DNA of 61,720 nt, the filler included, from Hausera hauseri (Eukaryota): the NCBI GenBank assembly GCA_046269625.1. It is 9 parts of 9 records of this genome, joined end to end, with 100 filler letters (N's around TTAATTAATTAA, not from the genome) between each part and the next. Parts side by side here need not be neighbours in the genome. Positions count along the whole stretch, not along the records: positions 35,294 to 41,976 come from JBJURY010075660.1; 8 more parts are not named here. One strand, given 5' to 3'. The notes beneath the pieces were generated by a model. The model did not search any database. It saw only the letters and a program-made list of their open reading frames with translations, and had not been told where the DNA came from. Of this stretch, positions 24,657 through 61,720 are shown piece by piece; within the stretch, counting starts at the first letter, position 1, and every line of letters starts with the position of its first letter. A program made the translations under genes and the position numbers.

Positions 24657-25493
24657 TAATAAATTTTAACCCGTGTACATCTGATATTAATATCGTCGGT
24701 GTGGATTGTTCTATTACATCTTCCCTTGATCTGGTATTAGTATGTAAATTGCTCGAATAACGCTTCCCAGTGGTCTCATTGAACTTTAACTCTTTGATTT
24801 TGATGAAATTGCAATCTTTCTTGGAGGGTGGCTTCCATACGATAACCGAACTTCGGAACGTACAAGCACCATTATGAATATGACATTTCTGATTTTCGGT
24901 GAATAGTTTGGTAACGCTATGAAACATCGCTTTTAAGGATCTTAACTCGGTTTTATAAAAATCTACGACTACTATTCCTCCTTCTTTTCCTTTCCCTATG
25001 TCATATTCTCCTCCGACGCAGTAACCAGTGTGCATGTTTTATTTTCCAACTGCTCTACTTATTTTTCCTTCTTGGGCTTCCAACTCCATACCGTCCCAAA
25101 CCATTTTACCGGTTATCCAGGCTCCTAAACAGTGTTGCCTATCTACGTTCATTTGGATCATGGGTGTAGTTGGTTTGATTATTAAAGAATGGTCGTGCAT
25201 ATTACCACAATGAAGTATTCTGCGGGATCTGCGTATCATGCATTCCACTGCATCCATTGCAATTAATTCGCGCTGTTGATATATAATATATTTTTTTCTA
25301 TTGTCTCGAGCTTATGCGGTCTCGCATCCTCACATGTTTCTAAGTCCATCAAGGAATATTTCTGACCCACCTTGAATTTGTCACAGTCGTATATGGAGAC
25401 TGCTCCTATCTGTTTTACTAACATCATTATTGTTAGGAAGTTGATTAACCAGCTGGATTCGTTTCCTTTCTTCGGGGAGATATTTCGTACCAT
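24657..25493 (-). pseudogene. Chuvirus-like envelope glycoprotein, N-terminal part
   Basis: Signal-like WLINFLTIMMLVKQIGA then VSIYDC..SLMDLETC, ECMIRRSRRILHCGNMHDHSLI, C.F....IVWKPP..DC. Confidence 0.75.
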
Positions 25494-25499
25494 ATCATC

Positions 25500-28400
25500 T
25501 AAATTACTGGTCCCTTTGCATTGTCCACTTTTCGAATAATTTCGTACATTTTATTTCTTTAGGTACCTTTTTCGCAGCTTTTCTAGCTAACCCAATTGTC
25601 TTGTTGAATTCATTTTCCCGGCGAGGGTTAGTTCTTACGGCTAAATATATCAACACCTTCCTTAATTCTTCCATCGTATTGTCTGTCGTGATTCTATCAA
25701 TTACTCTTTCATCAGGGAGGGTGCTTTTAGATAAATTGAATCGCGAAGTCTTCATCGTTCGGGCTATGCTATATATGAGTCTCTCTTTCTCGGATAATAT
25801 GTCGCCTTGAAGTCCGGTATAATTGACAATCCTTATTAAATCTTTCATTAGCTCAATTAATTCTTCGTTATCTAAACTAGGGGTTGGTATTGATAGTTGT
25901 CTCAGTTCCCTTATCAGGTCTGCATTATAGTCTATTACTTTCATTTTTCTTGGCCTTCCGACCGGTCGTTTCGGTTTCATCGGTAGTAAGGTTTCGCTTA
26001 GGGAGGGCTAGGTTTCTATTGTATTGCAGTTTATCATCATCCGTCTTCAAATATTCGAAGTACATTCGGCATCCTCAATACCCATGATTCTTCCGACGCA
26101 ATGCTCTGTATGCGCCTTCCTCATTGCTTCATCTTTGGTTTGCTCCCTAACAATTATTGCTATTATTCGATTTTCTTCGCGGGGTATAATCCCCACGTCT
26201 ATTAAGGATTCTAACTCATCTAAAATCTTGCCTCTGAAATAAAGTTGGTAGTTAACTCCTTCCTTGCCATATTTATCCATTCGGATGATACTTTCACTTT
26301 AATTTCCGTTTCAGGTTTGTTTCTCAATCGTTTAGCGTATTCTCTTATTAGAAGCTTGGGGACCGCTCTGTATGCGGTGTTTTCACTGGACAGCTTAGTC
26401 AAGGTTGGGATCAATTTCCTTAATCTATCTTCACTTATGTTTATTTTCACTACACTGCTCAGTTCCTTCTCAGCTAGTGTAGGATCAAGTAGCATTTGTA
26501 TGTCAAATTTCGTTTTCTGGGTACCAATGGGTGACTCAGATTTGTATAGGAGTTCTTTGACTCTGCTCGTTTAAACCTTGGAGGTATTCATCCCACTCGG
26601 CATCATTATATGCATCAGGTAATTCGCATTTCATTACTGCTGCGTGTTCTACTTGGACTCTTTCACGTATTTCTCTTATTTGCGGTTGCAATGTTTTCAC
26701 TATGGATACTCTAAATCCGTCTCCGTTTCCGCAAGCTTGTTGCATCAATGTTATTATTCAGCACATTTCTTCTGGTTGTATCAAGGCTTTCTCTTGGTAG
26801 CTGGTCAACTCCGCGATTCTGTCTCTTTGCCATCTCTGTATGAATTCTGTTTTGTCGTTCATTTCAGATTCCGTAAAGGAATACTTGTTTTTGTAGACTT
26901 CTGCTTCTCTCAATAATTCGCTTAGTTCGCGCTGTCTTTTCTCGGAGCGTAACCGGGTTTCTTTTATCAAACGTATGCGATGTATCAGTCGTCTGGCTAC
27001 TGTTTCTTCAATTCTTGCCATTTCTGTTAATAGTATGATTAATTTATGTGTTTGGTTTAATACTTCGTGTCCGGATCTATTGCGTCTATTAGCCTGCCTA
27101 TGAACTTGGCTTCGTCGCTCGTCAAATGAAGATCCTTCCTAATTTCCGTTAGTTCGGTATGGCAATGTAGATTGAAACCTGGTGTCCATTCGGCTGGATT
27201 CTGTAAATTTTGTAATGTTTGTGCCAGGGCGATTCGGTGATCGTTACATACTTCTAATGTTTCAATTTCCTGTGCGGATATTTCCTTCAGCGGTTTCTGC
27301 ATTAGGCCCTGTATCCCTTCCCAACGGATGTTCGCTAGACTTCGCTGAAGATCACTTAGTTTGTTTCTTTTTCGATCGATTTCCTTTCCCTCAATAACAC
27401 TATATATCTCTGTTAGTGTTGTTTGATCTTGATTACTACTCATAAATTCGAGATCTCGAAATGATTCGAATTTAATTCGCAATTTTGCTTCACCTTCCAT
27501 TGTGCCGATATCCAGAAACATTTCTTCTAATTGGTGTCTCATTATAGTCTCAACCACAGCGAATTCTCTTAGTCTTTCATTCATTATTTCTGCTATGGAA
27601 GGTAACAAGTCTATCCACTTCCTTATTTGTTTGGTTAACGCTGGTTTAGTGTAAATTATTTCGTCTAGCGTCCCAAGAGCTTCCTTTAGTTCATGATCAG
27701 GGCCCCTTACAAATTCCATGATATGTTTAATATAGTTGAATCCTTCTTTATACTCCTCTAGTTTAAGAAGACAAGCGCATATTATTCTCTGTGCTTCTGC
27801 TTTTTAGGGTGAACTACACCGCTCCTACAGTTGTTGACTTTGGTTCGTATTTCATTTTCTTTTTCAGTACCTATTTTTAAATCTAGATACCTCCGAGGGT
27901 TATCCTTTATCAGGTTGCACATTGCTATTAACTGGGAAATGTTCATTGGGTCTATGCCTAATGTTTCTAATTCGGCCTCTGTTAGTTCCTGCACTGGCTT
28001 GATATGACGATAATAAATTATCGCTTCTTCGATCCCATATACCAATCTTTTTAAATTGCGTATTACACGTTTCCGTTTTGGGTTCTGTTTTAGTGCCTTT
28101 AGTAGTCCTTGTGCTTGGTTTACTTCATCGAGAAACGGCTCGTATCTATTACCCAGTATTTTCGTAAAATCGATCTCACTCTTCATCCACAGTTCTAATT
28201 TATTTTGCCAACTGTTTATTAAATCTTGCGGCATTTGCTCATCTGTTGAAGACTTTGGAGATTCTAATTTAGTCTTCCGGGATCATTCAATGCCTCTCTT
28301 ATTTCAATTAGTTCATTTGCATTTTTCCGAGATTTTCTGATCTTTCCAAACTCAATGGGTGTTTCTTCTTCTGATTCCTCTTCACTAGGCAGTAATGGGT

Positions 28401-28900
28401 ATATTTCATTAATTTCATCAATATTTGAAATACTTATTGCTTCCTGAACGTCTTGGATTATAACAGGAGTATGTAACTCTGTTTCATCTCTTAAAACGAT
28501 AATGAAGTCTTCCGCTTTTTCTAAATCTTTTGTAATAGGGGATAGTGAACGAGTTCGTCACCTTCTCCTAAGTGAAAGGCTTCTACCCCTATTTTTCGTT
28601 ATTTTGACTATTAGTAGGCCAATGAATTCGCTGTCGACCTCGTCTGTAGTTTTGTCCTTCTCTTGGGACTCGACCTCGGTCTCTGCGTCCAGATCCACGC
28701 TTGAAGACTTAGTCGGCCTTTCCTCTTTCGCTGCTTGATTTAGGTTTCTTTTCCTGGCCATATTAGTGTTTCGGAGTGCTATAGCATTTTCGTATTCCGT
28801 TTTTGTTTCTCTTAACCCACGGTAAACTAGCATTAGCTGCAAATTTTCTTCGTACTCTTTCCTGGCCTTGATTATTTGTGGATTATTAGATTCACCCATA
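25500..28900 (-). pseudogene. ORF X: long Glu/Lys/Arg-rich helical region of unknown function with a ubiquitin-like segment and AT-hook; frameshifted
   Basis: Consecutive same-strand ORF fragments, each with a homologous segment in the same order at 56450-59920. Confidence 0.7.
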
Positions 28901-30300
28901 TTTTTATATGCCTTCGTAGATCTTGCATTTCGATAATCATGTTTATATCCCCTCGTTTTCCATATATACGTTCCAAATTATCCTTTATCGTGCTAGCCTT
29001 AGTAGTCTCTGAAAATGATACGCTTCGCGGATTAGGAAATGATCTAGCTATATGTCCTTCCTTGCCACATGAATAACAAATCAGATTCTCGTCTCGGCCG
29101 ATCCTTTGTCGTCCGTCTTCGTTCACTGGTGATTTGGGTCTGCCTGTTATTTTGTTTTGAATGGGTTGAGCTTTATTTCTATTTTCGAAACTTCGACAAT
29201 CTATATATCGGTTCTTGTTACCTCGGTCATTATTTTGGCTTCTGTCCGGATTATAACTTGTTTTGTATGTGTTCCTATTATCGCCAAAGTTTCTATTATC
29301 ATATCTCTTACTGCGATTAGTGGCATTCTGAGCTCTATTCTCATAGCCTCGGTCTTTATTATTATCATTAGATATTCTATTGTTTCGGTTTCTATCCCGA
29401 TTATCGCGATCATTATTTTGCTCATATCTATCACTCTGTCTAATGTATCTATCTAGTGCCATTTCTAAGTTCTGCGCTAACTGTAATGCAGTATCAAAAT
29501 TGTTTGGTCGAGCTAAAATTAGTTGTTTAACTAAGTCTCTGGACCATATACCATATTAACTGAGTTGTCATTTTGACATCTAAATCCGGTGGACTAGCCT
29601 TCTATGCCGCTTCGTTTTCCGCGCCTTTCTTTGCCTTTGCCACATTAGCTATCCTTAACATGCTCACGTAACTATTAGCAAGCTTCTTTAGTGCGAATGC
29701 AAATTGATTGACCGACTTACCCTTTTGTTGCGTTCTGTTTTGGAAGGCCATAAGCTTTTGTTGTAGGGTCACCGCTGGCAACAATTTACGATTCATGGAT
29801 CCTACTACGGCGGACCATGATTTCTTCTCGTCATTGGTGATTTCACTATAGGCGTATGCAGCCAGATTTTTTAAGTATAATGACAGTCGTTTAATCATAA
29901 CTTCGGGCGCAAGACTGGAACCTTCTGCGTGCAATTAATAAGTGCTTAAAAAATCATTTAACCCATCCGGGTCACAGTCATATGCCGTTATGTTCAAAAA
30001 ATCGAACGTAAAAATATCAAGTTTCTGTGCTATAGCGGGGTTGTCTGCTACCATCTTTATTTTATTCGGTTTATATGCTTTATGTCTTTTAGGAGGAGCT
30101 TTGAATTCTTTAACGAAGGTTAATTCAGTGTGGGATAAACAATGCTTGTCTATTGCCTTGCATTTAGTATAGAGTTTAATCCGCGTTTCCCTTTGATTAA
30201 GTTTCTCTATACCGTTTACTAATAAGTTTTGACACGAGTTGATAATCTCAATGTTTACTCTCGGATTAATCTTTACTTAATTCCCCTCTAACCACTTATG
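28900..30300 (-). pseudogene. Gag (capsid-like region, Asn/Arg-rich spacer, CCHC knuckle), frameshifted
   Basis: AYDCDPDGLNDF, LSLYLKNLAAYAYSEI, RTQQKGKSVNQFAFALKKLA (retrotransposon gag Q..ESV..F pattern), CYSCGKEGHIARS[F] at 29037-29078. Confidence 0.8.
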
Positions 30301-30416
30301 ATCCCAAGTTTAGACTCTTAACTCGTATTGTATAACAATTATTTGATGTATATTACGCTATTCGGCCGTATGTCTTTAATTGACTCTCGAAAGTACTGTC
30401 TAGCGAGGTACAAACT

Positions 30417-30434
30417 ATCCTGCTAGGGTCGCCA
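30417..30434 (-). promoter_or_regulatory. Primer-binding site TGGCGACCCTAGCAGGAT (tRNA-Arg-like)
   Basis: TGG start right after the LTR end; resembles the complement of tRNA-Arg 3' ends (...GGTCG-CCA). Confidence 0.75.
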
Positions 30435-30436
30435 AA

Positions 30437-30811
30437 TGTTATAGTTGGGGTGACCCTTATCGTCTCACACTGTAACAATAATTAAAGTCGATTTAAAAGG
30501 TTTTCTAAGCAGGTTAGAACTACTCGTGCTCGAATAGTTGGCTTGTACCCTAAGAGTTATCAGATACGTGAAGTGATGATGGTAGTGCTTGCAATGACAA
30601 AATGCTTGCCTCAATTTACCAATTCTTGTCCTAGCTATAGATTTCACGTTGATTTTACCCTTAGAGTAGTCAAATCGTCGTTAAGAGACGATGCGAAACT
30701 ATATAGGGATTTTAACAAAAGAAATTCAAATAACCTTTATTACTGCAAAATGACTACAAAAATTCAAGACAATCAATCAACGAATAAGTTGAGTTCAGAT
30801 CACTTGTAATA
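30437..30811 (-). repeat. Partial 5' LTR (R/U5) of copy A
   Basis: Ends in ...ACTATAACA two nt before the PBS; AATAAA at 30736-30741 (minus); alignable by eye with 55416-55752. Confidence 0.75.
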
Positions 30812-34241: not shown

Positions 34242-35193
34242 TCAGAACTGACAGTCCAGGCAGTGGCCAGGTGTACCGTCAATGTAGTAGCGGTTGTACT
34301 CCCCTAGTCTTCCATTTCCTGTGAAGCCCACACAGTCTTTGTACAATTGGTTGCAGGAAGAACATGTTATCACAGCAAAGGGTTTTCGGTTTCTGTCCTG
34401 AAAGATGCTGAGAATTTACTCCAGTTGATCTCCCCTGTAAATGATCATTTAAAAAAGTTACGTAAAATGTAATTTCATGTTTTAAATGAGAACAAGTCAA
34501 ACATCATTACCATCCAGCCATGCAAAGTGGGCCTTCTTCCTGAAAACTGGATCAGACACCAAAGATTTAAACCGCTTGCAGGTCAATGCCAAAGTGAGGT
34601 AAGCAGCATCTCCTTCTGTTAGGACCACCTCTTGGAGCACAGCCTCAAGTACATGCAAAGGCATCTGAAAAACAACCCAAATGTGAATTGTAAGCGTGTC
34701 AGAGAACGAACAACAATATGTATAAGAATTATTCTTACCTGTAAAATTGGTGGCATTTGTTGCACCTAAAAAGAGAAGACCACAAAAAAAAAACAGACAT
34801 AATACAGCATCAACACACATTTACATCTGAAACACACAAGGAAGTGACAATTCTTAATTATGGATAGTGTGACAAACCTCAAGGTCTGGCTTGGTTGTTC
34901 ATGCATAGGTGTGGTCCTCAGCACAATGACTCTGACAAAATATATATTTATACAATGTTTCTTAAAAACTAAAAGACAAAAACAGTCGGGTAATGTACAA
35001 AAACATAATTGATTCAATACTTGATTGTTGGATCATGATTGTCTGTCAAACACAAACCTAGTGCAAATGAGCACTGCAAATACACATAACAACAAAGAGA
35101 TTATTTAAAACTATATCTTACCTTACATTTTCTCCTTGCTTCAACCATTTCATCATCTCTCTTCCGCTTTCTCTCTCGTCGTAGTTCTTCTTT
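34242..35193 (-). pseudogene. Small spliced gene: basic coiled coil + F-box-like motif + two CxxC pairs; 1-bp frameshift in the last exon
   Basis: GT-AG exons 35122-35193 (partial), 34739-34765, 34511-34664, 34242-34434; ILQMPLHVLEAVLQEV...LALTCKRFKSLVSD; TCSSC...HCLDC. Confidence 0.6.
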
Positions 35194-35508
35194 NNNNNNN
35201 NNNNNNNNNNNNNNNNNNNNNNNNNNNNNNNNNNNNNTTAATTAATTAANNNNNNNNNNNNNNNNNNNNNNNNNNNNNNNNNNNNNNNNNNNNTATTAGT
35301 AATAATTAATTAAATGTGCAGCCAAAATGTACTTGATTTTGTTGAAATATATATTTATATCAACAATAGATTTATTCGGAATTAACGTTGTGTAAATAGA
35401 AAATAGGTGCAGGATAGCCCTCGTGGTAACTGAACAACCACACGAACTCACAGCGAGAAAAGTTTCACTAGCGCAACTTCCATAAATAAAATGTTAACAA
35501 AAACCAAA

Positions 35509-36110
35509 ACAGAACCAACAATCCTTAAAGATTGTAATGCAAGTTTAGAAGAACCAATGTTTAGAAGTAGTGAAACAGATGGGGTAAGATTGCCAAATGG
35601 AGGTATTACTGCAGCTCCAAATAAACTAACACAAACAAATCTCGCAAAAGGGATTACCGATGATAAGTTTCGTCAAAGGGCATATATAGGCATAAGGAAA
35701 TTAAAGCCTTTAGACAATTTCTCGCTTTTCCGCGACAGCGGATACACAAATTAAATCGAGCCATAGACTCCGTACTAAATGATACTCGATATCAAGCTAA
35801 ATGGGAATCATTTCTTGGTGTAAACAATTACCAGCGAGTAACCACAGAAATATTGTACAAAATTTGGGAAGATTTTTAATTTTTGACAAGCCGAATCTGG
35901 ATTTTTAGCAATCTATTTCCTATTACAAATAATTAAGGCCGTCATCCAAGCAGTAATATATGGCAATGAAATATGTACATTGACCGGATTTTCGTGTAAA
36001 ATATTGACCTCAATCATAACGTCTTTTGCAAAGTTTTTGAAAGCCTACGAAGAAAATAGATGGAAATCGGACGTAAAACGTCATGTCGGTTATCATAATC
36101 GTAAATGAAA
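35509..36110 (+). pseudogene. C-terminal part of the chuvirus-like glycoprotein, including membrane anchor region
   Basis: PTILKDC...PMFR.SETD.V.LPNGG; GIYRHKEIKAFRQFLAFP; FLAIYFLLQIIKAVIQAVIYG..ICTLTGFS; matches copy C. Confidence 0.8.
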
Positions 36111-36697
36111 AGAAACACCTATGTTCTTGTACAAGCGAAAATTTACAAAATCTAATACTCGAAGAAATAATTCAGATGATGACGAGCCTAAAGGAGGAGA
36201 AGTACTTTTAAGAACAGACAGACGTAAGTCGTAATCCGTCAGTAAAGCACCATTGCCTATGATATCCCCTACTTCTCCAGTCTATGAAGAATGTGACAAA
36301 CGGTCAATGAGCTCTTATCAGACAGAAATCTATAAAAAGACAATTAGTTTGGACGACCGCTACGAAGGAACGAGACGCTATGGAGTCATACTAAAAATGT
36401 GTTATCGACAGCCCATGGATGACCCCAGAATATTGTATTCCCCGAGAGAACCTTGGAATATAGAAACTAGATTGCCTGTCTGGGAAAATCCAAGGTTAAA
36501 AACCTTCCAAAATATAGAACCACACACTAACAATCGAGAACCATTAACTGAACATCAAAAACAATAAATTATATCCAAACGGAGAATTAAGACAATTATC
36601 AGAAAGCACAGTATCCTCCCCGGAAATTTGAATCAACGGACATAAAATATCGGCGACTAAACGCCCAAAAGTTGCATAAAACTGTTTTTGAACAGTA

Positions 36698-39600
36698 ATG
36701 GAAGGGAGACCCTTCTCCAAAATCATTATTGAAGACTGGGAAGTTTATGCGTTAATCGATACAGGTTCTGAGATGTCGTATATTAAAAACGATTCTATAC
36801 CTCAAACTCTAGGAGGACAGTTATACCAACCATCTACAAAGGATCCAGGAAGTACAGGAGCTTTTGGCCAAATGTTAAAACCCATGTTCAAATGGGACCC
36901 AGAAGTTCAAATAGTTAGACAGTTTTTCCGTCACGAATTTGAAGTTATGGAACAATTAACTGACGACGTAGTTCTAGGGTGTACTCTACTCAAGAGACTA
37001 CCAAATATAGCGATTGACTTGCAGACAGGAAAATTAATAGAAATCAGACCAAATAAAAGCGTAAGAAACTCTAAGGATAGAAAATTTGGAGAGGTGTGTA
37101 TACCAGTAGATGAAAATATTCCACCGAGAAAAGATAATAATTTACGCGCAAATTCAACAAGATGACGATCAACCAGTATATTTCGAATCAAAAGAGACAT
37201 TAAATCCGAATATAATACTTAGTAATATACTGACCAGAGTGCACTCCGGTCTTGTACCGATCAGAATAGCAAATAATGCACCGACTTCCATCAAGCTTTA
37301 TGTTTATACCACTCTAGGAAATATTTATAGAGGGTCGTCCATAACTATTAAAGAAAAGCCTTATAAGTATGCCGAATTCTCACTTCATGTCGAAGCTATG
37401 TTTTCCCCGGAATCTTACTGTCGATTCTATGAATTATTATGTCGCTATAAATGGATTATTGCTAAGGACGATGAGGATATTGGTAGGACGAAAGCATTAA
37501 AATTAACTATCCCGCTTAAAAAAGCCTAGTTCAAACGAAGAAATAAATCTTGAGGATCAGAAGATATCGAAATGGTATCCTCCACCTGATTCACTAAAAC
37601 CCGAGATAACAAAGGCGTTCAAACGGATGCTTAATCCGATATAATTAAGCCGAGCTATAGATCTTGGTATTCACCAATCTTCATGGTTAAAAAGAAAGGT
37701 ACTACGAAACATCGATTCTGCATTGACTACAGAGCGTTAAATAATCCTATGATGAAAGATTTCCCATTGCCATCAGTAAAAGAGGCTCTAGACAAACTCT
37801 CCAGAGAAAAATGGTTTACCACTCTGGATTTACAATCGGGATATTGACAGGTACAAATCGAGGACGAAGACCGATATAAAACAGCGTTCAAGATACATGA
37901 TGGTGTTTATGAATTTAATGTCATGCCATTCGGTATTACTACCGGACCAGCCATATTTAAAAGACTAATGAATAAAATGTTGGTGTAATAAGACCATGCT
38001 TTTGCATATTTAGACAATGTAATGATAGCGTCAGAGGAACACNNNNNNNNNNCAAAATATCAGATTGCGTGGAACCACAAAATCGGAAAAAGCTAAGACA
38101 CTGGCTACGTTTATGTGGATATTATGACACTTATGTACCGAACAACTCGAAAATAAATGTACCGTTATATCACCTTCTTAAAAAAGGAATTAAATGGAAA
38201 TGGACAGACGTCTAACTGAAAGCTTTCGACGATATGAAAAAGATATTAACAAGTGCACCAGTTTTTCAATACACAGACTTTAATTTACCTTTTATAATCA
38301 AGACAGATGCCAGTAAAAAAGATATTGGCCATAAATTAGTGCAGAAAGGAGAAGATGAAGAATTAAAATACCCAAATGCTTATGTAGGACGATCCTTGAA
38401 GAAGGCCCAGAAAAATTATTCTGCTACCAAATTAGAAACTCTAGCCGTAAAATTTGCGCTTCGACACTTCAACGTTTACGTGTACGGGCAGAAAATTGTA
38501 ATTGTCAGTGATCACAAAGCCGTTACGACTTTAAAAGGCCCACAAATAACCCAACATGCAGACTTAACAGATGGATCGAAGAAATCTCTAGATACAATAT
38601 TGAATTCTAGTATAAGCCAGGAAATAAACATGTAGATGCCGATGCACTATAAAGACTAAAGACCAAACAAGTGCAATCACTGTAATGAAGAAAAGTCAGC
38701 CTGAAGAAATAATAGATCGCCAACGTGCCTTAACGACGGATGAAGCGATTAAAATCTCAACCGAACAAAGAAAGAATAGAATTATCCAACAGATTATAGA
38801 ATTTGCTGAGAAGGACATAGTACCAAAAGGACGAAAATTATAAAAATATCTACGTAGACACGGACACAAATATTGCGTTTTGAACAACAAGGGTCTCGAA
38901 AACCTTCTATATTATGAGCGAAAAGAAAAAAAGCTGATAATTATTCCGAAAAACTTACGAATTAAGGTTTTTATGTCGGAACATGACTCATACTTAGCCG
39001 GACACATGTAGTGGAAAAAGATGTTACAGATAATACTGAATAAATACTTTCGGCTCAGTATCTATATTGATGTGAAAAATTGAGTAAATGCTTGTGAAGT
39101 ATATGCCACTAAACAAAAAAGACAAAGAATTATATAGCAAAATTAAAACCAGTCAATGGATATCGTAGGACCGCTTCCTACGACCCACAGAAACAATAAA
39201 TATAGATTAACTTGTATTGATCGACTAACTCATTTTGTCGAATTGATAACGTTAATTGATCAAAAGGCGGAAACTTTGGCAGAAGCTGTAGTAAGAATCA
39301 TTTGCCGATATGGACCTCCAGACCAAATATTAACAGATCGAGGAAGAAATTTTATAAGTGAACTATTTGAGAAGATTATCAAAATATTTGAAATCGAATG
39401 GGTAACTAATATCGCGTATCACCCTCAGTGTAATGGAATGGTTAAACGAATGAATGCAATTGTCATACGCATACTATCAACAGTAGTAGCTAAGGACCAA
39501 AAAGATTGGGACAAATTTTTAGAAGGAAATCAGTTTGCAATCAATACCACGCCACATCTATCAACAGGATTTACACCATATTTTATGATGTATGGACGCG

Positions 39601-39990
39601 AAGATATGTTGCGAACAGACTTAGGAATGACGCCATACACAGTCAATCCCGAAGATTTAGAACAAAACTTCGCAGAAGTATTACAAACGCGACTACAAAA
39701 ATGTTGAGAAATCACCAAGGAGTTATCCCAAGAATATCAAGAACAGTTCAAAAAGTAATACGATGAGAAAGTGAAACCGCATGATTTAGAACCAGGAAAT
39801 TGGGTTTATGTACATTATCCAGTTGCCAAGAAAGGCACGTTATTAAAACTGACTCGTACAGGCACAGGACCGTACGAAGTGACTAGAGTCACGCTAACTA
39901 CCAAGTACATTAACAAAAATGGGAAGGAAGAAGTCTTATCAATACAAAGAGTTGTTAAGACGGATATACGTCCCAATAAACGTTACAATT
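36698..39990 (+). pseudogene. pol: Ty3/Gypsy pol: aspartic protease, RT, RNase H, integrase with GPY/F module; many stops and frameshifts
   Basis: ALIDTGSEMSYI; SPIFMVKKK..RFCIDYRALN..PLP..LDLQSGY*Q..KTAF..YEFNVMPFG..AYLDN; TDAS..YSATKLETLAV..SDHK; HDSYLAGH..C; DIVGPLP..TDRGRNF..YHPQCNG; GPYEV. Confidence 0.95.
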
Positions 39991-41438
39991 TACATCAACG
40001 CGAGATAAAAACTTTCTCAATAATTGGTAGACCGTTATCATATCTTCAGATAGTTTTAGCACGATCACTAATTGCTTCTAATATTCCAAGAACACAAACT
40101 CAATGGTGGGACGATGAAACCATGTTAGAAGACTTATATGGAATTCGGAAGAGCGGATCAAAGCCGAAAAGTATTATAACGAAAAAGTAAACAACGGCCG
40201 AAGAGATCCAAAAACGAGAAGACACTATTTTGTTACAATCAATGAAGGTTCATTACTTTTCGCCCGACTCTCTGTGTGTTGGATTTAAAACTTAGAGACC
40301 ATATCACGATTTCGGAAGATTTCAAGTTGTACTATATGATGTGACAACAAAATAAGTAAAAAATTGCGATTTTTAACCCGGAGATTATACACAGTGCTGT
40401 GACAGATTTTGGACATATTTACATCCTTACTTATCGACTATACTTACTAGACTCATCAGAAGTCTATATCAAAGTAAACTCACAACTTCAATTGGTCATT
40501 CTCACTTGGCCTAGACGATTCGAAGTGAAACCCAAAGAAAGGCTACAATTCACTGACCCAAATATAAGGCTGTTAGATGAAAACATCAAAAGGATCTCAG
40601 TAAACCAGGGAAAACAATGCATCTAAGTAGATGGTTGAACAGGATTAACTCTTAGTCAAAAAATTAGTATTGTTTTCGAAGCAGTAAACGGAAAAGCTCC
40701 GAACATGAAATACTGTTCTCTTCATGCCGGTGTGTAACACCCATGTTGTAAGCTATCAGTAAACCAAGAATTCAAAATAAAATTTTATCTATATGAAGTA
40801 CGACGGGATAAACCGAGCAAACATTTGCAAACCTATTACCCATAGAATAGAATATGGCGGATTCCAGTATAAACGACAACCGAAAAACCGACAACTCGAG
40901 TTAGTGCTAATACCAGACCCGTTATATCAAGCAGTGTGCCTAAAAGAGAATTTGGAAGTGTACATACTAAATATTCGGCACATCGATTTAAAATTGTGTT
41001 CTTTGTAGAAAAACTAAATTACGACATACATATAAGCTGTCGAACAACGTATAATAATCAAATTGGAAAACTACTTAAGAACACTCAGAAGACGGAATGC
41101 AATTTGTTAAAACCACAATCCGATTACATAGTACAAGTATATGCAAAGAATAAACAAAATCAATTACATTGCGTACCTTAAACGAAATTCGTGAAGAATC
41201 GCATGTATACGAAAACATAGACGACGAAGTCACAACTCCATTCACCATACAAGCCCAAATGAGATTAACCGCTTTACCAATCATATCGATTTTCGTACTA
41301 CCAACGTTTGTTCTCATTATATTAATTGCGATTTTTCGGTTAGTTGCCAAAAATTGTCAGTCTAAGCGTCCTAAAACTATAGAATTGGAAATTGGGGAAT
41401 TGGCACCCCCTACTGACCCGTATGGTAAAATAACCTGA
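39990..41438 (+). pseudogene. Putative second type-I membrane protein with an FN3-like domain downstream of integrase; fragmented
   Basis: Hydrophobic signal-like FSIIGRPLSYLQIVLARSLIA after IN; CNLLKPQSDYIVQVYAKN (41098-41151); TM LTALPIISIFVLPTFVLIILIAIF; short tail ending at 41438. Confidence 0.55.
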
Positions 41439-41519
41439 CAACTACAGAGCGGGTTATTCTATCATCTAACTAAGAATTTGTTTCATTTTAAGACCACCCT
41501 TTGTTGTAAGATTAACCCT

Positions 41520-41976
41520 TACTGTTTATTTCTTAGACTGATGAGTAAAGAGAGAGTTATTAAAACGGGTACTGGACGACCTATGATCGACGAATCGCGA
41601 TCTATCCAAGAACGAGAACGATGTAGTATCGATAAATCACCAAAACGCCGACTTAGTATCGACGAGTTTCTGCAGAATTACGCTACCGTCTTTCTTCCAA
41701 ATTCAAAATCCATATATCTAGAAATTCATAACGAATGGCATGAGAAAACCTTCATGAAGTATGATCAGACCAGCATAATTCCTAATAATTTAAAGGGTAT
41801 AACGGAGGAAAATAGGATTGTTTACCTTTACGCCATGAGAAAAGAAAAGGATGCCCGAGCATACTCACTCAAACAGATGATCAAGTACGAACATCATCAG
41901 AATATTTATATCCACCTGGTAGATGGTGATATATACTATCGGTTCAAAAATCAAGAAGGCAATAGGGACTTAGTAC
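41520..41976 (+). CDS. Hypothetical ORF, open to the contig end, probably part of the retroelement
   Basis: Over 150 uninterrupted codons from MSKERVIK; same strand and composition as the element; no motif recognised. Confidence 0.45.
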
Positions 41977-42829: not shown

Positions 42830-44138
42830 CAGCGTTGTTCAAATTAACGTTTCTACCCTGTGCATTAATGTGTTCATGTACATTTGCACTCTCTTTCTCC
42901 CTCTCTCTCGCATACAATGTTTATTATTTTATGCGTTCTGATGCTTGCCTGTATCCATCATGTAGTTGCACACCTGCATGTTGTATGAGTCATGCACACC
43001 TGCACTGCAAGTCAATAATTAATTTTAATCATTTGTCAGTATTAAAAGCGAGCATCAACTGCGTTTAAAAATTGAAACTCTTCTACGACATACCAGCAAG
43101 AGTAATCGTGAGATAGCCCGCGATCTTTGTGTATCTCTCACAGGTTAACAACGTGAAAAAAAAGCAACTCAGTGCAACAGGAAGTGCTTTACCAAGAAGA
43201 ATCCAAAGGTGTGGTCACAAACCTTTTCTTGGTGCCAGTGCTCAGTGCCTTATTGTTTGCAGGCCAAGCTCCATCCCAAAGTAATATCAAGAGAAATACA
43301 TCAATCCGCATAAGCTGTCTTTGAACATGTCAGTGGTAGCACCATCAGACGTATTCTGCGCCAGAACGGAATGAAAGCATACAGACCCATCAAGTGTCCT
43401 GTCCTCACAAAAACACATTAACGTTGGCGTTACAAATGGTCACTCCAACATTTGCAGTCTTCATCTACTCAGTGGAAGAAAGTTATTTTCTCCGATGAAT
43501 CTTGCTTTGAGGTAAGAGAACCATGGTCTAAGTATGTCCGTCGACAGAAGGCAAGCTGCTTCAACGTGATCACTTCAACGAACAAAGTGGTTGCCTTTGA
43601 AGGTAATGGTATGGGGTTGCATGTCCTTTTATAAGACCTCTGAGTTGCACATTGTCGACGGTACAGTAGATAGTGATAAGTACATCTCTATTTTGAAGGA
43701 GTACCTTTTACCTAAGGTGTAGGAATGGTTTGGTAAATCGAGCTGGATTTAACAGCAAGATAATGCTCGCAGTCATACCAACAAGTACTATAAAGAAGCT
43801 CCAGCAAAACAACATTGAAGTGCTTTCTTGGCCAAGTTGTAGCCCTGGTTTTAATTGCATCGGAAACCTCTGGGGCATTATGAAGCAGGAGGTCTACCAG
43901 ACCATAAATTAGAGTACGCGACATCTCACTGAGAAAATTAAGATTGCGTGGAACAGAGACAAAGTGCAAAGTATGTGTGCTAAATTTGTTTTACCCATGC
44001 CATCACCTGTTAACTGTATCAAGATTGTTAAAGATGGTCACACTTCATATTGATTTATGGTAAATAAAACTTACTTTTGGAAATTTGTGTAATTTTTCTT
44101 CATTTTTGTGGATGGAAACGTTAATTTGAACAACCCTG
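42830..44138 (+). mobile_element. Full-length but decayed Tc1-like transposon
   Basis: TIRs CAGCGTTGTTCAAATTAACGTTTC / GAAACGTTAATTTGAACAACCCTG, TA on both sides; transposase remnants WKKVIFSDESCF, VMVWGC, QQDNARSH, WPSCSPGFNCIGNLW. Confidence 0.92.
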
Positions 44139-44435: not shown

Positions 44436-45452
44436 ATGGAAATTAATGCAAAAAATGCTAATTTAATCATTGAAAAGTTGAGAAGGAACAATTATAAGAG
44501 CACGGATATACACAGATTACTGACAATGGCCTGGGGTGATGAGGTGACAAGCGTTAGACAAGTTCAAATAATATCGAAAGAATATGAAGACGGTAATTGA
44601 GTTGATTTTAAAAGGAAGCCAGGCAGCGGAAAAAAAGACGAAAATCACAAAAAAGTAGTACGTTTAGTTGAGCAACAAATGCAGCAAAACCATAAGTTGA
44701 CTACAAAAGAATTGGCGGAGATTGCCGGTGTATCTAACTACCTTGTATACAAAATATTAACGAAGGGTTTGATGTGGAAATGTTTGTCGGACAAGTGGGT
44801 GCCGCATACTTTAACGGACGGACATAAATCTGAACGCGTGTAGTGTTGTGAGAACTTGTTGCAGACTTTCACCAGGCACAGAAATAGTAAACGATACTTA
44901 ATTGTAACCTACGAGAAGTGGTTCTACGGCAAACCTTTAGGTAACTTTGTTACCAGAAAATCTTGGGTTCCACCTGCTGGAGACGGATGCGAAGTTGCTA
45001 AGAGGATGACTGTTGAAATGAAATGTTTTGTTCTGGTTGCTGTAAGTTTTGGAAGTCTCTATCAGTTTAAGGTTTTAAATCGGTGTGAAACAGTAAACTT
45101 TGAGTTATGAGCTTAGAGTGCACAGAAGATCCGTGTCATTGGATACGTGCATCCTTATGCACGACAATGCTACGCCTCATACATCTCTCTTTGCCACACA
45201 ATTCCTTCAAGACAAAGGCTGCACCTTGATTCGACAACCACCATACTCTCCAGATGTCAGCATTTGTGACCGCATGGTCTTCCGAAAGGTAGAAATGAAA
45301 AGATCCGGAATAACATTTCATGAAGCGAACGATGTCGTAGATTTTCTTCATGAGGAATTTCAGACTTTAACTGAACAGGTGATGAATCATGAATTTGACA
45401 TGCTTACCTTCACTTACGAAATGTTATAGACAATAATGGTAATTACGTTTAA
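44436..45452 (+). mobile_element. Decayed mariner-type (DD34D-like) transposase
   Basis: KWVPHTLT, IVTYEKWFY, LMHDNATPHTS, QPPYSPDVSICD; stops and frameshifts; TIRs not identified. Confidence 0.88.
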
Positions 45453-49300: not shown

Positions 49301-49775
49301 GACAAATACGTATTTTATAAAAGAGATGCTAGCGAACAAACAATAACGAAAAGGACCTTACTAAGCGCAGTCCTTAAAATGTACGATCCCCTGGGATTTT
49401 TAAGTTGCTATACTATAATCGGAAAAATGATAATGCAAGAATTGTGGATCGGGAACTATGAATGGGATCAAAAACTCCCGGACCAAATATCAAACAGGAT
49501 AAAATCATGGATGGAGGAAGCTCATCTACTAGACGAAATAGGAATTGAAATGTACCTAAGATTAGACAAAGATGAGAACTGGGAACTACATATCTTTTGT
49601 GACGCCTCGAGACTAGGTTACGGCGCAGTGGGTTATCAGAACAAGGAAAAAGAATGGGAACTTTTTCAAAACATTGGTAGTTGCTAAAGCGAAAGTAGAT
49701 CCAGTCAAATCGATAGCGATACCAAGATTGGAGTTATTGGCGGCTTGTGTGGGAGTCAAACTGAATGAAAGACGA
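46388..49775 (+). mobile_element. BEL/Pao LTR retrotransposon gag-pol fragment, decayed, truncated before integrase
   Basis: LPKLQKLELPKF..EFDKW..F..K..L..CL.GEPKRLI (DUF1759-like Gag); MLLDDAS protease; PVARLTPLGW; YMDE RT motif; TKTLGMKW, TKRTLLS..YDPLGFL; LHIFCDAS..YGAV; AKAKVDP..IPRLELLAA. Confidence 0.92.
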
Positions 49776-55415: not shown

Positions 55416-55752
55416 ACTTGCCATCTTATTCTTATCGATTGATATTCTTGCAATTGTAACGTACGGTATTATTTAGTTGTTAATAAACTTGTATTTAAAA
55501 TTCTTGATAGCTTTTTCGTCGCTCCTTACGAGGGACTGGTACCACATTAAGTATTAAAATTTCGTATAAAATCTAGTTAAGTCGAGATCCATTTAAACTC
55601 TGCAAAGGACACGCACGCAGTTCGTACATCATAAATTAGTGCAAACATTCTAACGAGAATGTTAGAACGTACCTGCCAAATAAATATCTCTAATTGAAAT
55701 TAATTCATTGTTATAGTTGGGTGTTGGATAGGGCCACCTTCAACTACTAACA
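55416..55752 (+). repeat. Partial 5' LTR (R/U5) of copy C
   Basis: AATAAA at 55482-55487; ends ...CTAACA two nt before the PBS. Confidence 0.75.
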
Positions 55753-55754
55753 AT

Positions 55755-55772
55755 TGGCGACCCTAAAAGGAC
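55755..55772 (+). promoter_or_regulatory. Primer-binding site TGGCGACCCTAAAAGGAC (tRNA-Arg-like)
   Basis: Same position and near-identical sequence to the copy A PBS. Confidence 0.75.
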
Positions 55773-55899
55773 AGTTTGTACTTGCTAGACTTGACTTTTA
55801 GCGAAAAGTAACGACATATCAGCGATCAGCGCTACCACATCGAATAATTTANNNNNNNNNNGTGATCTTGAAATTCGGGATTGATAAGAAACCTTAGTA

Positions 55900-58800
55900 T
55901 TATAACGACATACTATTGAATTCAGAACGAATATTGACAGGCATAAGTCGGACATTAGTTTAAATTTAGTCCCAGACGATAAAGAAAATATTAACATACG
56001 CGAAATACGCAACAAAGTATATACATAAGGTAAGACGTTGAGCAGACGCACCTTATCTGAAACGAATTTAGCTAATATTAAAACTAATAATTTAGACGCT
56101 GTCGAACAACTTATTGAATTTATAATCCCCGATAAACGAATTAAAACTCGTAAGCTAATTAAGCAAAGTCTAATAAATGTAGAAAACATGATTGAGAATC
56201 AAGCAGTTCCGCAGAAGTTGGATATCTTTAAATTTGACTCTGAATCTGCCGGCGTACGACGGAGACCCGGACGGATTTAATGAATTCTTAAGAACTTATA
56301 AGTTGCATGCAGAAAGTGCTGGACTTGCATGTAACGTAATGATTAAACGTTTATCATTATATTTGAAAAATTTGGCCGCTGATGCTCATAGTGAACTCAC
56401 TGATGATGAGAAGAAATCCTGGTCCTCTCTCGTAGGGTCATGTCCAAATCCACAAAGCGTTTCGTTTGTTGAGCCTAGTAAAACTAATGTAGTTAGGAAT
56501 AAAAATTTAGAAGCCGTTTATGGCATCCGTAAAGACAAAGGTATGATCATAGACATACAAGATTTACGACATCTCCTAAAAGCTCAATCTGATACCAGTG
56601 ATCTAAAAGTCTTAATGGCCAAGAATGGGTATGAGCACAAGTTACGATTGTTAGAAGTATATCATGGCCTACGCAAACCAGAAACGGAATACGAACTTTC
56701 TATTGCCCCGCCAAAGCTTACCGATATGGCATGTAAAAAGAATGTTCGAGCGGTTCATAAAGAAGCAGGGGAAACGGAAAATCCTGAGACTCCGGATGAA
56801 GTAGACTTAGACGCAGAAGCGGAATATATGATAGAAAAAGTAGACAAAACCATAGAAGTTGACGAAGAAAAAGAATTTATGGAACCACTAATACTCAAAA
56901 TTACGAAGAATAGAGGCCGTAGTCCATCATTGAAGTGGAAACGTAAAGATCGTTCACAATCTTCAATGAATAAAGAAAAGTCGCGCAGGGCAAAAGAAAC
57001 CGAAAATGCTCTAGAAAGCGACGTAGAGTTCAATTTGAATACCCCGGAAACCGGGCTAGTTACCCTTGTCGGAATAGAAAAATTAATAAATGAAATAAAT
57101 GATATGTCGATTGCTTATTAGTGAAGAAGAGGCAGACCAAAGTGAGGAATTCGATCGTAAAAAGTGAAAAATCGGACGTTCATGGAAAAACACTGATGAA
57201 TTAAAATGAGGATTATTTGTCACGATCCAGACGAACTGCAGCAGAATCTAGAAAAACTTAAAGAAATGAGCGAACAAGTAGACATTTCCAGTAAGAAGCA
57301 GCAGTTCGTACAGAGATTGTACAAGAAAATGAAGTTAAGGAAAGTTAATTGAAGCTATGGATCTAGAACAACCTGCGGAGGTATCCCCGAACACAATAGC
57401 GAAAGAAAACATGAATTAGAAATGTGGATGAAAAGTGGAGTAAAATTACCGGAAGCATAAGACAAAACCACTGAAGACATTGAAGTAAAAATAAATAAAG
57501 CTCAAACATTATTGACTACGTTAAAAGCCAACCGAAAACTAAAGAGAGCAACACGTAACCTAGAACGTGTCATGAATGAAATTAGATTCGAAGTAGTTGA
57601 ACGACTCAAAGAAAAACCGGCCCAGGAAAGAAATGAAACTGACTTAGACATGCTGGGTATATACTCAATAGATATTCCGCTCTTAGTGGAAATGATAAAA
57701 ATCGCTTCCACTGCATCAAAACAATATACTAGCCTGGAAAATCGTATTAAGATTGAAACCGAAAAACTGTCGCAAATATACAGCTTGAGGAATATGATTA
57801 TGAATGTGAATAATGAGGAAACACAAAACGTAATTAAGGCTTGTATCCTTGAACTCGAAGAGTACAAAGATGAGTTTAATTATGCCAAATGATTATTGGT
57901 TTTATTAAATGTCCGGATGATGAATGGGAAGACGCCTACAAAATACTAGATGAAGCAATACTGGCAAAACCCATGATTGCTAATCAGTTAATGAATGATC
58001 CCGACTAATAATGAGACTGAGTGAACTAGTAGAGTGCCGTATAAAAGAATTTCTCGAAAGTGAGCCTACATTACAGAAGCAATTATAAGAAAATGCACGA
58101 AACCTAGATACAGTGAGAGCGGAAATAGACATTAGAACTCAATTTGATGCATTACGCCAATTACAATTTATGAAAACCAAACAAGAAATGACGATACTGG
58201 ACAACATATATAAAATGATCGAAGAAACGAACTTTACAGAGAAGTAGAACATGATCTGTAACTTCCATCCGAGATTAAAGAATGTTCGCTTGGAAGGAAT
58301 CCAGCATTTGACATCTAAACATATCAATGAGATCTCAATTCGGGATGTCGAAACTTTAAATGTTTGTGCGGAACATCGATCAGATATACAAGAGGCAATA
58401 GAATTACTACACAAACCCCAAGAGTGGATGATCGTAACAGATCAAAGGTGTCATACGAACTGACCAAAATAAGAAATGACCAGCACCTCAGCTTTGATGA
58501 CGTGAAGTTTGTAAAGAGGTTGCTCGATGTTATAGATCCAGACTCGAAAATTATTCATGAGATGTATGAATTAGCATTACTAATGGTGGAAATGGCAGAA
58601 ATTAGTGATGAAAAAATAAGACAATTGATGCCTCAGATACGGCGAGTCGAAGAAACTTTTATTAAAACCAAACAGAGAGCGATAAGATTAGACGACCTGG
58701 TTAAAGAAAGACATTGTTTTCGAACAACACAAATGAATAAAATGCAACGGAAATTTAGCGAATTAAGAGGATCAACACGGGATGCGGAAGCGGCTCAGCT

Positions 58801-59920
58801 ACTGGACAGGCTAACACTTGATTACAGACCTCCAGATAGTGAAAACGAACCAGAATGGGATGCATACTTAGACGCAATGATTGCTGAGAATCCGAAAACC
58901 ACGGGATCGGAGATTTAGTGTGGAAATGCTTTTAGATTCAGCGCAAACTGAAAAGGACTTAATTAAGTTAATTAATGTAAATCTTACCGAATCTCAATTA
59001 AAACAGCTAGTTTCTACCCTAACTTCTAATAAAGGAATATGCTAAAGTATTAAGGACCACATCCGAATACACAGTTAAAGTAAAAATATCGTCTGACCGG
59101 ATGGACGAGAAAGAGCAAGAGTATACTAAGCGCTCTGTCGTAAGAGACGTGGTACAGTGGCTAATGAATAATGGTTGCGCAAGTGAAATGGACTATAAAC
59201 TTTACTTTAGCCGTTGAATATTAGACGAACTGGAACAATTAATTGACGTCAGAATTATCCCAGGTGAAACGAATCGAATAGTATTGACGGTCGCTACGGA
59301 GGAGACAAAAAAGAGGCCACAAGGACGGCTAAAGCAGATCATTGTGCAGGACGAATCGTGGGAGTTCGAGATATAGCAATGTACTTTAAATACTTGCAAA
59401 CGGACGAAGGCAAAGAACAATTTGATAAGAATTTAGTGCCATCTAGCGAGACCGCACCAGTTATAGCAAATCAGAAGCGTCTTGTTGGTAGACCGCGACA
59501 GGCTCGAGAAGAGACTGATTTTAATGGGATTTAATTAGGGATTTGAGGCAAATGTCCATACCAACACTTAGTCCAGAAAACGAAGAGCTGAATGAACTTA
59601 TGAAAAACTTGATACGCATAGTAAACCACTCTAGTCTCTGTGGCGATATATTAGATGAAAAAGAGAAATCTATAAACCATGCAGCCAAGACAATGAGTAA
59701 TTTACGATGTAAATCATCTAGGAGCACATTAAGCAACGAATCGGTGATCGAAAAGATAACGGTAGAAAACACTATAAAAGAGTTAAGAAAGGTGTGACTA
59801 TATTGAGCCATTAAAACAAACCCTGCCAGAGAAGATGAACTTAACAAGGCCACTAGTCTAGCGCGAAGGGCTGCCAGAAAGCTACCCCGAGACGTAAGCT
59901 GGTCTTTAGTAATAGTAGAT
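55900..59920 (+). pseudogene. Gag (internally deleted) continuing in frame into ORF X
   Basis: PAYDGDPDGFNEFL..LSLYLKNLAADA..W; ORF 56192-57121 runs from Gag into ORF X without a stop; later fragments match copy A. Confidence 0.75.
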
Positions 59921-59928
59921 TCGAAGAT

Positions 59929-61720
59929 ATGTTACGAAATTTAACTGGGAATAATCGGGGAAATGAATCAAACTGGCTAATTAATTTTCTAACTGCGATG
60001 ATGTTAATAAGACAAATAGGAGCGGTTACAATATATGACTGTGCCAAATTCAGACTTGGCCAAAGATATTCATTAATGGATTTGGAAATGTGCGAAAATG
60101 TGAGACCACATAAATTAGAAACAAAAGAAGAAAGATATGTACTGTATCAGCAACGACAGTTAGTCTCATTGGATGAAATAGAATGTATGTTGCGACGATC
60201 TCGCAGTATTTTTCATTGTGGATTAATACACGTACATTCATCTATAATCAAGCCGACGACCCCACTAATTCCAATGAACTTAGAACTCCAGCATTGTAAG
60301 CAGGCTAGAGAGACAGACAGGCTGAAGTTGAACGTCATGGAATTAGAAATGCAGCAAGGGAAAATAATCAGAACATACAAAGTAGCAGCAGGAAGATTAG
60401 ACATGCATACGAGTCACTATAACGGTGCAGAATACGATACTGGAAAGGGATTGCAGTCAAACATAGTGGTTGTGGATTTCTACGAAACCGAGATGCGCAC
60501 ACAAAAAGTGATGTTTCATAGTGTTACTAAGCTCTATACGGAAAACCAAAAGTGATACATCCAAGACAGCACCTGTTCTTTTAGGATTTCAGTAGTAATT
60601 TGAAACCTCCAGACAAGACCGATTGCAATTTCATTAAAATTAAAGAACTGAAGTTTAACGAAACGACAGGAAAACGCTACGTAAGTAATACGGATAAAAA
60701 CTCAAAAATGCGAGAGGATGTAGCGGAACGGCATACACCTACCATATTAATTTCCGATACTCACGGATTAAAGTTTGTGAAGAAAGACGTACTCACAAGG
60801 TGTGATGTATTAATGTACGCCACCAGTTATGAAGCATTCTTTGTAGCTGAAACCGAGGTAAATACCAGAACGTTCAGGCTTGAGACTCAAGATATTCGAA
60901 TTGAAGATTATTTGAAGAATAGAGACGATTATTTCTACTACAAGGGATAGGCCGGAATTACTGAGTTATACCATAAGATGAAAACGGATGACTGTAAACT
61001 AGACTTAGAAGCCATAAGAACCAAACTGGCTTTAATATATGCCAATCCCGAGCTAGCGTCACCAATAATTCCGATAAAAGAAGGCGTTTTTGGACGAGTG
61101 ACGGGAGAAGTTCTGCTGACCTACGAATGCGAGAAGAAGGATGTACCTATTAATGTGGAAGAGAAAAGGTGCATTCAAGAACTTCCAGTGATATATCAGG
61201 ACGTACCGAGATTGGTAACGCCGATTACGACAGTATTACTGGCAAACTCTATATAACCGACGATTCTGAACGATTGTAAGACCAGTTTGGGAGAACCAAT
61301 GTTTAGACATAGCGAAACCGATTGGGTAAGTTTACCGAATGGTGGGATAATTACGCCGCCCACCAAGTTAACAGGAACAAATTTAATAAGCGGAATAATT
61401 GATGATAAGTTTCAAGATGCTGAAGCAAAAGTTACTTATCGGCTAAAAGAAGTAGAGGCATTTAGACAATTTCTCGCTTTCCCACGCCACCGTACGCATG
61501 AATCAAACAGCGCGATGCATACAATACTAGAGGATTCACGTTACCAAGCGAAATGGGAAACGTTACTTGGTGTTAACTACTATCAAAAGGTGACTACTGA
61601 AATATTGTATAAAATTTTGGGAAGGTTTCTGATATTCGGCCGAGCCTCATCAGTATTCCTAGCAATTTATTTCGAAATTCAAATGGTTAAAGCGATAATT
61701 CAAGCGGTAATAAATGGATA
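59929..61720 (+). pseudogene. Chuvirus-like envelope glycoprotein, nearly complete, with a few stops
   Basis: IYDC..SLMDLEMC; LYQQ..IEC.LRRSRSIFHCG..HSSII; GEVLLTYEC..DV..RCIQELPVIY..LVTPIT.VL; DC..PMF; FRQFLAFP; hydrophobic C-terminus FLIFGRASSVFLAIYF. Confidence 0.8.

Follow-up and report, generated by a model that had tools for sequence, protein, structure and literature searches.

A decayed gene for a predicted tandem FN3-like membrane protein directly after the integrase of a probable gag-env-pol retroelement

The window (the whole stretch of DNA analysed, 61,720 nucleotides) consists of nine contigs of the Hausera hauseri assembly joined by spacers of 44 N, 12 bases and a further 44 N, and the finding described here lies within one of them, c5 (35294-41976, JBJURY010075660.1). 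On its plus strand this contig carries, in order, the 3' end of env, PR, RT, RNase H, IN and two further reading frames, ORF4 and ORF5, the latter extending to the contig end, while the 5' halves of two related elements are located on contigs c9 and c3. The features are as follows.

35473..36060, plus strand: chuvirus/gB-type fusogen (env), 3' part, upstream of pol; PF24664 Monjiviricetes_fusion
36692..40000, plus strand: decayed Ty3/gypsy pol, order PR-RT-RNase H-IN
40023..41438, plus strand: ORF4, pseudogenised gene for a predicted type I membrane protein, ~470 codons; collinear tblastn alignment with P0016 and P0017
40023..40100, plus strand: signal-peptide-like segment, matching P0016 residues 10-35
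40242..40460 (approximate), plus strand: FN3-like domain 1 (D1; Cys, Cys, Cys-Cys), with a frameshift inside; beta-sandwich at P0016 77-153
40582..40866 (approximate), plus strand: FN3-like domain 2 (D2; Cys, Cys, Cys-Cys); P0016 191-282, structural matches at Z ~7
40873..40941, plus strand: Thr/Ser-rich linker, 43% T+S
40942..41180, plus strand: FN3-like domain 3 (D3), with LxPxSxYxVxVxAxN at 41107-41151; Pfam fn3 E 0.024
41265..41336, plus strand: predicted transmembrane helix, 24 aa; best 19-residue Kyte-Doolittle (KD) mean 3.07
41337..41438, plus strand: predicted cytoplasmic tail, 33 aa, stop at 41436-41438; YxxI-T end in all three sequences of the family
41541..41975, plus strand: ORF5, starting with a Met and open for 145 codons up to where the contig stops, of element-like composition
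55416..61720, plus strand: related element on c9, 5' half (LTR end, PBS-like TGGCG near 55755, gag, long ORF, env)
24657..30811, minus strand: third related element, on c3, 5' half (LTR end, gag with CCHC knuckle, long ORF, env start)

The c5 element appears to be a gag-env-pol Ty3/gypsy errantivirus with a chuvirus/gB-type fusogen, an architecture that has already been published. Its pol gave profile matches to RVP (E 4.8e-05), RVT_1 (E 2.9e-21), RT_RNaseH_2 (E 1.7e-28) and rve (E 8e-13), and a search with the integrase core returned 15 generic gypsy pols at 32-44% identity, so that even the best pol relative, at 44%, is not a close one. Troyka LTR retrotransposons, which according to the available text of PMC12440569 are without an envelope gene and without a GPF/Y motif in integrase, were rejected as an assignment since env is present in c5 and a GPY motif occurs near 39867. 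An earlier reading of the window, made from the sequence alone, had referred to an upstream fusogen, and this was upheld by the PF24664 match on the same contig at 35473-36000 (E 2.7e-06; 26.1 bits, slightly below the cut-off of 27). The env of c9, which shares 70% nt identity with that of c5, matches the same profile at E ~1e-11, and PF24664 env proteins have relatives among RNA viruses. Between the env TM region and the protease (36060-36640, plus strand) lie approximately 190 Ser/Pro/charge-rich codons without a family match, which belong either to an extended tail of env or to an additional short ORF. The c3, c9 and c5 elements are 65-74% identical where aligned (between c3 and c9, or with c5), the c9 element being a different family member from that of c5 and located on a separate contig; c3 and c9 have a common LTR end and TGGCG PBS-like site. 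In c3, env is preceded by a zf-CCHC match (E 1.3e-04), while c5 itself begins inside env and ends at 41976 inside another ORF, and both c3 and c9 end within env. The gag-env interval of these two copies (57100-59800, plus strand, and 25500-28900, minus strand) is occupied by a charged, probably helical ORF of approximately 900 codons, which is 31-62% conserved between copies and gave no convincing family match among the pieces scanned.

With regard to the source of the DNA, the observed/expected CpG ratio is depleted in the contigs at 1-20214 and 30912-35193 (0.42 and 0.23, respectively), and lies between 0.82 and 1.38 in the other seven contigs, with a value of 1.13 for c5. A decayed element that still holds its CpGs is unlikely to stem from a methylated vertebrate genome, which points to an invertebrate source, and the assembly probably combines two organisms, invertebrate and vertebrate-like DNA, with the two CpG-depleted contigs making up the vertebrate-like set. 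Contig 1 (1-20214) carries WD40 exons, which we take to be EML5/6-like. The host-type control was a compact gene for a MOV10-like helicase, preceded by a PHD-like zinc finger (21114-23069, minus strand). Additionally, the window holds a decayed BEL/Pao element (46388-50300, plus strand; DUF1759, Peptidase_A17) and Tc5/pogo-like and Tc1/mariner-like transposase remnants at 830-1543 (minus strand), 43200-43980 (plus strand) and 45097-45429 (plus strand), the second of which was assigned by eye and the other two by family search. Four ORFs of the window had no exact match in the protein collection.

The end of the c5 integrase (KRYNLHQR, at 39978) is followed in the same frame by a hydrophobic stretch at 40023-40100, and further downstream by the 24-aa helix and the 33-aa tail, all where the sequence-only reading had put them; the peptides it had quoted, SAHRFKIVFF..YDIHISC..TECNLLKPQSDYIVQVYAKN, were likewise found, within ORF 40873-41181. 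Any single frame across 40023-41438 contains 21-32 stops. A phmmer search with the middle frame (40432-41178, with X at stops) against 1.84 billion representatives produced three matches at E<=0.001, two of which are strong, namely P0016, an intact protein of 479 aa (E 1.1e-37, 33% identity), and P0017, a partial, 189-aa C-terminal piece (E 9.5e-20, 47% identity). The third, P0018 (E 5.5e-04), aligned over 40 residues only, in 7 stretches, and was set aside as a probable chance match. Residues 10-129, 131-411 and 393-479 of P0016 align with 40023-40403, 40405-41217 and 41157-41435, respectively, with alternating frames, and as this alignment is collinear over three frame segments, 40023-41438 represents one gene with two frameshifts. 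The frame changes fall within ~40404-40431 and 41157-41178, nine in-frame stops are present (40188, 40293, 40353, 40374, 40624, 40636, 40735, 40843 and 40870), and the initiator Met is absent from the c5 copy.

P0016 and P0017 are single records, and the ORF4 family comprises three sequences (33-47% identity). In a word-index search with alignment A1, P0016 was the only match among 4768 candidates, while none of 23 candidates was confirmed when domain 3 was searched against longer proteins, and A1 had no match among PDB sequences. P0016 had no PHROGs match and one weak NCBIfam match far below its cut-off; ORF4 had no match among phages, and none of its 84 pattern matches in prokaryotic genomes was confirmed. 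No sequence-level cellular relative of ORF4 was thus obtained by phmmer, word-index or PDB sequence searches, and no donor gene can therefore be named. The earlier description of the protein as host-like holds for its fold and not for its sequence.

Judged from the sequences and the P0016 model, the ORF4 family is predicted to encode a type I membrane protein with a putative signal peptide, three tandem FN3-like domains, a Thr-rich linker, a transmembrane helix and a tail. The sequence-only reading had proposed this signal/FN3-like/TM/tail layout, and homology to P0016 and P0017 together with the model supported it, except that three FN3-like domains were found rather than one. The signal-like segment, doubtful when considered alone, displays a basic n-region, a best 11-residue KD mean of 2.3 and, ahead of the site where cleavage is likely, small residues, and it falls in the best-conserved part of the ORF4/P0016 alignment: residues 10-52 of P0016 are 62% identical to this region over ~42-43 residues, a score reached by 0 of 2000 shuffles. 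The Thr/Ser-rich linker is a possible O-glycosylated spacer. The transmembrane segment occurs at the same position in P0016 (KD19 2.26; helix 432-460 in the model) and P0017 (KD19 2.95). The tail is short, carries no catalytic domain and ends in YGKIT, YDRIT or YGRIT in the three sequences, a YxxI end that is a candidate sorting signal of the YxxPhi class. An [LV]ExxYGxR motif was also observed at the N-terminus of ORF4 (40125, plus strand) and directly after gag in c9 (56507, plus strand) and c3 (28976, minus strand); it was set aside as not significant in a shuffle test (15 and 20 of 100 shuffles).

AlphaFold2, run on P0016 with alignment A1 (five rows, two to three deep per column), yielded a model with three beta-strand domains at residues 77-153, 191-282 and 328-398 (mean pLDDT 52, pTM 0.27). 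Block pLDDT was 64-81 in D2 and 57-78 in D3, and in D1 it stood at 47-69 before dropping under 50 at residue 132; a single-sequence model of ORF4's own middle frame reached 36.8. D1 and D2 are internal repeats (0 of 1000 shuffles), with D3 more distant (20 of 1000 against D2). Foldseek returned 283 PDB matches to the P0016 model at E<=0.001, the top ones all being tandem FN3 fragments (fibronectin at E 2.9e-09, gp130, contactin-1), and D3 was superimposed on fibronectin FN3-6 with Z 9.1 and an rmsd of 2.0 A over 76 aligned residues. D1 and D2 scored Z ~7, with Ig-like sandwiches tying with FN3. In a wide structure search Z 8 was reached by only 3 of 48,161 chains, and the Z of 7-9 of the ORF4-family domains is close to common-fold level; given the few chains at Z 8 and the tie with Ig-like sandwiches, 'FN3-like' is a safe designation, unlike any claim that the domains derive from one particular receptor. 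The model thus supports a seven-stranded FN3-type beta-sandwich fold for these domains.

By profile the FN3 assignment is weak, the Pfam fn3 (PF00041) matches of D3 in ORF4 (15.3 bits) and of P0017 (13 bits) both being below the gathering score of 25, and P0016 giving no match in the same scan. The signature given by the sequence-only reading, L-x-P-x-[TS]-x-Y-x-V-x-V-x-A-x-N, has a single match in the six frames of the whole window, at 41107. The Leu-x-Pro...Tyr motif (tyrosine corner) before strand F is a feature of FN3 domains and is present in D3 of all three sequences while being degenerate in D1 and D2; a further FN3 feature, the conserved Trp with which strand B ends, was not seen by eye in alignment A1, where Phe or Val takes its place. 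Feature neighbours of D3 in the ESM Atlas were mostly fn3 membrane proteins (0.83-0.85, with all scores <0.9), which serve as a lead only. Cytokine-receptor ectodomains (gp130, IL-9R, IL-22R1, IFNAR and OSMR) are among the structural matches to the P0016 model, with scores that do not exceed those of fibronectin, tenascin or designed sandwiches. No WSxWS or RGD motif occurs in the ORF4 family, and membership of the class I/II cytokine receptors is not supported, with WSxWS absent and an Interfer-bind match (E 0.07, 13.8 bits) below its cut-off of 21. Neither a class II fusion fold nor Gn homology (Phenuivirus-like Gn/Gc) featured among the fold matches listed, the model being one of three separate sandwiches, and viral structure matches were limited to generic FN3/Ig chains at 7-13% identity.

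We consider it likely that the element itself carried ORF4, in the interval that separates integrase from the 3' LTR, and hence that it has a second membrane-protein gene, as the sequence-only reading had proposed. The pol-ORF4 junction is known from one locus in the window and c5 ends without a 3' LTR, and it could be argued on these grounds that ORF4 is a neighbouring host gene or retrocopy beside a 3'-truncated element, both having since decayed; an FN3 fold, moreover, is typical for surface proteins of a host, and the intact P0016 could itself be a host gene. This explanation is unlikely, since ORF4 begins ~30 nt past the end of integrase on the same strand and resembles pol in both its decay and its composition. 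Stop density is 9 per 465 codons in ORF4 and 13 per 701 in the stretches of pol aligned to P0002 (Fisher p=1.0), and fourfold-degenerate third positions (A/C/G/T) are 80/23/29/45 in ORF4 and 131/43/49/73 in pol (p=0.97), as opposed to 47/29/43/43 in the host-type MOV10/PHD exons, which differ from ORF4 (p=0.01). The BEL element is similarly A-rich (third-position A 0.45), so this bias marks retroelement cargo generally and not the c5 element alone; by 3-mer profile, the five segments closest to ORF4 out of 134 all lie within the c5 element. Furthermore, the 1.4 kb of ORF4/P0016 alignment contain no intron-sized gap, whereas the MOV10-like gene of the neighbouring contig is split across separate ORFs, and the spread of the three ORF4 family members resembles that among the three elements. 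No LTR was detected between integrase and ORF4: the LTR ends of c3 and c9 scored 21 and 24 against the sequence after integrase (null maxima 29 and 31) and 72 against each other, a comparison that is a weak test because those LTRs come from diverged copies.

It is improbable, furthermore, that ORF4 and ORF5 together represent a fragment of some other virus or mobile element that became nested in the c5 copy alone, or was joined to that copy alone by recombination. Such an origin would accommodate a second orphan ORF following ORF4, with 145 open codons and better preserved than the sequence beside it (P=0.06 under the pooled rate of decay), and env itself has RNA-virus relatives; however, no junction repeat was seen, ORF4 decays like pol, and neither the generic viral structure matches nor the phage and prokaryotic searches provide a source. 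ORF5, for which Pfam, PHROGs, NCBIfam, PDB sequences and phages gave no match, is probably part of the same element as ORF4. That ORF4 might instead be the C-terminal part of a pol polyprotein, released by signal peptidase, is suggested by ORF 39759-40190, which runs from the integrase C-terminus to the signal segment without a stop in the c5 copy, and by the Burro (PMC6431247) and Atlas (PMC9094657) elements, which are described as holding env inside a polyprotein. The in-frame position noted by the sequence-only reading is therefore correct for this copy, while fusion is highly improbable: P0016 is a free-standing protein whose own Met, which ORF4 lacks, precedes the signal region by nine residues, its first residues do not match the integrase frame, and fn3 was found in 0 of the 15 pol-like matches to the c5 integrase. 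A two-residue match to P0016 in another frame slightly upstream is a weak hint of damage at the ORF4 start in c5. From the free-standing P0016 with its Met, and from this hint, a separate gene is much likelier than a pol fusion.

As to function, ORF4 may have partnered the gB-type fusogen by providing attachment or tropism, a reading that we favour tentatively and that falls somewhat short of probable. From the anatomy of the gene, ORF4 would be translated from its own start codon, probably via a spliced or subgenomic RNA, and its product would enter the ER and be displayed as a single-pass protein, with the tail sorting it in the endosomal or plasma-membrane system. It would then join budding particles beside the gB-type fusogen, where the distal, presumably disulphide-bonded D1-D2 pair, extended by the Thr-rich linker and D3, could bind a cell-surface or matrix ligand, such that ORF4 would handle attachment and tropism while env performs fusion. 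Provided that ORF4 belongs to the element, particle uptake of its product together with ligand binding by D1-D2 is, in our estimation, evenly balanced. Herpesviruses likewise place binding and fusion on separate proteins. The published survey bases its definition of errantiviruses on gag, pol and env alone, and many of these elements are multicopy, so that, on the evidence of the survey as far as its available text extends, an ORF4-like partner is not required (PMC13524379). An element-borne ORF4 could alternatively act in the producer cell, where it might dampen host defence or exclude superinfection by serving as a receptor decoy, by soaking up a ligand or by down-regulating a receptor, its YxxI tail drawing a bound host protein into endosomes. 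This possibility, which we regard as doubtful, draws on the same membership evidence as the attachment reading and is consistent with the cytokine-receptor ectodomains among the structural matches, the weak Interfer-bind match, the short tail with its conserved YxxI end and no catalytic domain, and the host-modulating domains described for giant planarian gypsy elements (PMC6431247). It is countered by the absence of WSxWS, by cytokine receptors matching no better than other sandwiches, and by the phmmer and word-index searches, in which no host paralog to mimic was found.

Retrotransposons of invertebrates that bear env are regarded as having three genes, with a single env doing everything. 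The c5 backbone is of a known kind, and the apparent novelty is the tandem-FN3 membrane gene, of which a prior description is possible: no report of an FN3 accessory gene in an LTR element appeared among the papers listed by the literature searches. With a second surface protein of cell-derived appearance, the c5 element would count as a complex, retrovirus-like one and would offer a handle on tropism or host manipulation; P0016 is an intact natural homolog that can be expressed, the c5 copy of ORF4 itself being dead. More speculatively, and with a rather low likelihood in our view, a gag-env-pol lineage would have evolved a two-component, herpesvirus-like entry system, pairing a class III fusogen of gB type encoded upstream of pol with a receptor-binding tandem-FN3 protein that was captured separately and is encoded after integrase.

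ORF4 also draws attention to the sequence that follows pol in the gag-env-pol elements already published. Among the bryozoan and nematode gag-env-pol rows in the available part of PMC13524379 (10/10 and 15/36, respectively, 25 in total), 15 have an LTR, as does one of nine flatworm rows; assuming that the 3000-nt flank applies, 12 of those 15 have at least 1 kb after pol, and six of them at least 1.4 kb. The interval from the pol stop to the 3' LTR thus apparently measures 1-2 kb in many of these elements and is unannotated in that paper, which constitutes room for accessory genes and no evidence of them. This interval may be an overlooked slot for accessory surface genes.

The viral capture of cellular receptors has precedents in v-mpl, a retroviral capture of a cytokine receptor, and in viral receptor decoys. 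ORF4 resembles tandem-FN3 proteins (fibronectin, gp130, Tie2, contactins and class II cytokine receptors) in its predicted tandem seven-stranded beta-sandwiches and single TM, while the family is 6-17% identical to such cell-surface proteins and is devoid of WSxWS, RGD and a catalytic tail. With respect to its backbone, the c5 element is like the GAG-ENV-POL errantiviruses (PMC13524379), sharing the Ty3/gypsy pol order, a gB-type fusogen ahead of pol, with gag before env in the related copies, and a similar size (at least 12 kb here, summed from two different copies); such errantiviruses with HSV/gB-type env are known from Nematoda, Bryozoa and Platyhelminthes (Chary and Hayashi, PMC13524379, citing Sacco et al. 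2022). They have three ORFs, to which the c5 type appears to add ORF4 and ORF5 after integrase and a long gag-env ORF, and the main text of PMC13524379 contains no occurrence of 'fibronectin', 'FN3' or 'accessory'. The giant planarian gypsy elements Burro and GYPSM1 (PMC6431247) similarly display env homology between gag and pol and carry many accessory domains, although Burro is a single polyprotein of ~4,900 aa whose accessory domains (BIR, MATH, BCL2) are intracellular, and 'fibronectin' does not occur in the available text of that review. The LTR elements of bdelloid rotifers also hold captured non-env ORFs downstream of pol, some with TM; their ORF3s (GDSL, DEDDy and small TM proteins) replace env, whereas ORF4 is FN3-like and additional to the fusogen (PMC5408684). 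The closest functional precedent is Atlas virus, an LTR belpaovirus whose two envelope glycoproteins serve attachment (by homology) and fusion, respectively, as described in PMC9094657. It differs from c5 in its BEL/Pao pol and in its Gn and Gc, which are cut from one phlebovirus-like precursor, and its FN3-like fold belongs to a class II fusogen, of which it forms domain III; in the c5 element, by contrast, the two membrane-protein genes are separate and unrelated, and flank pol.
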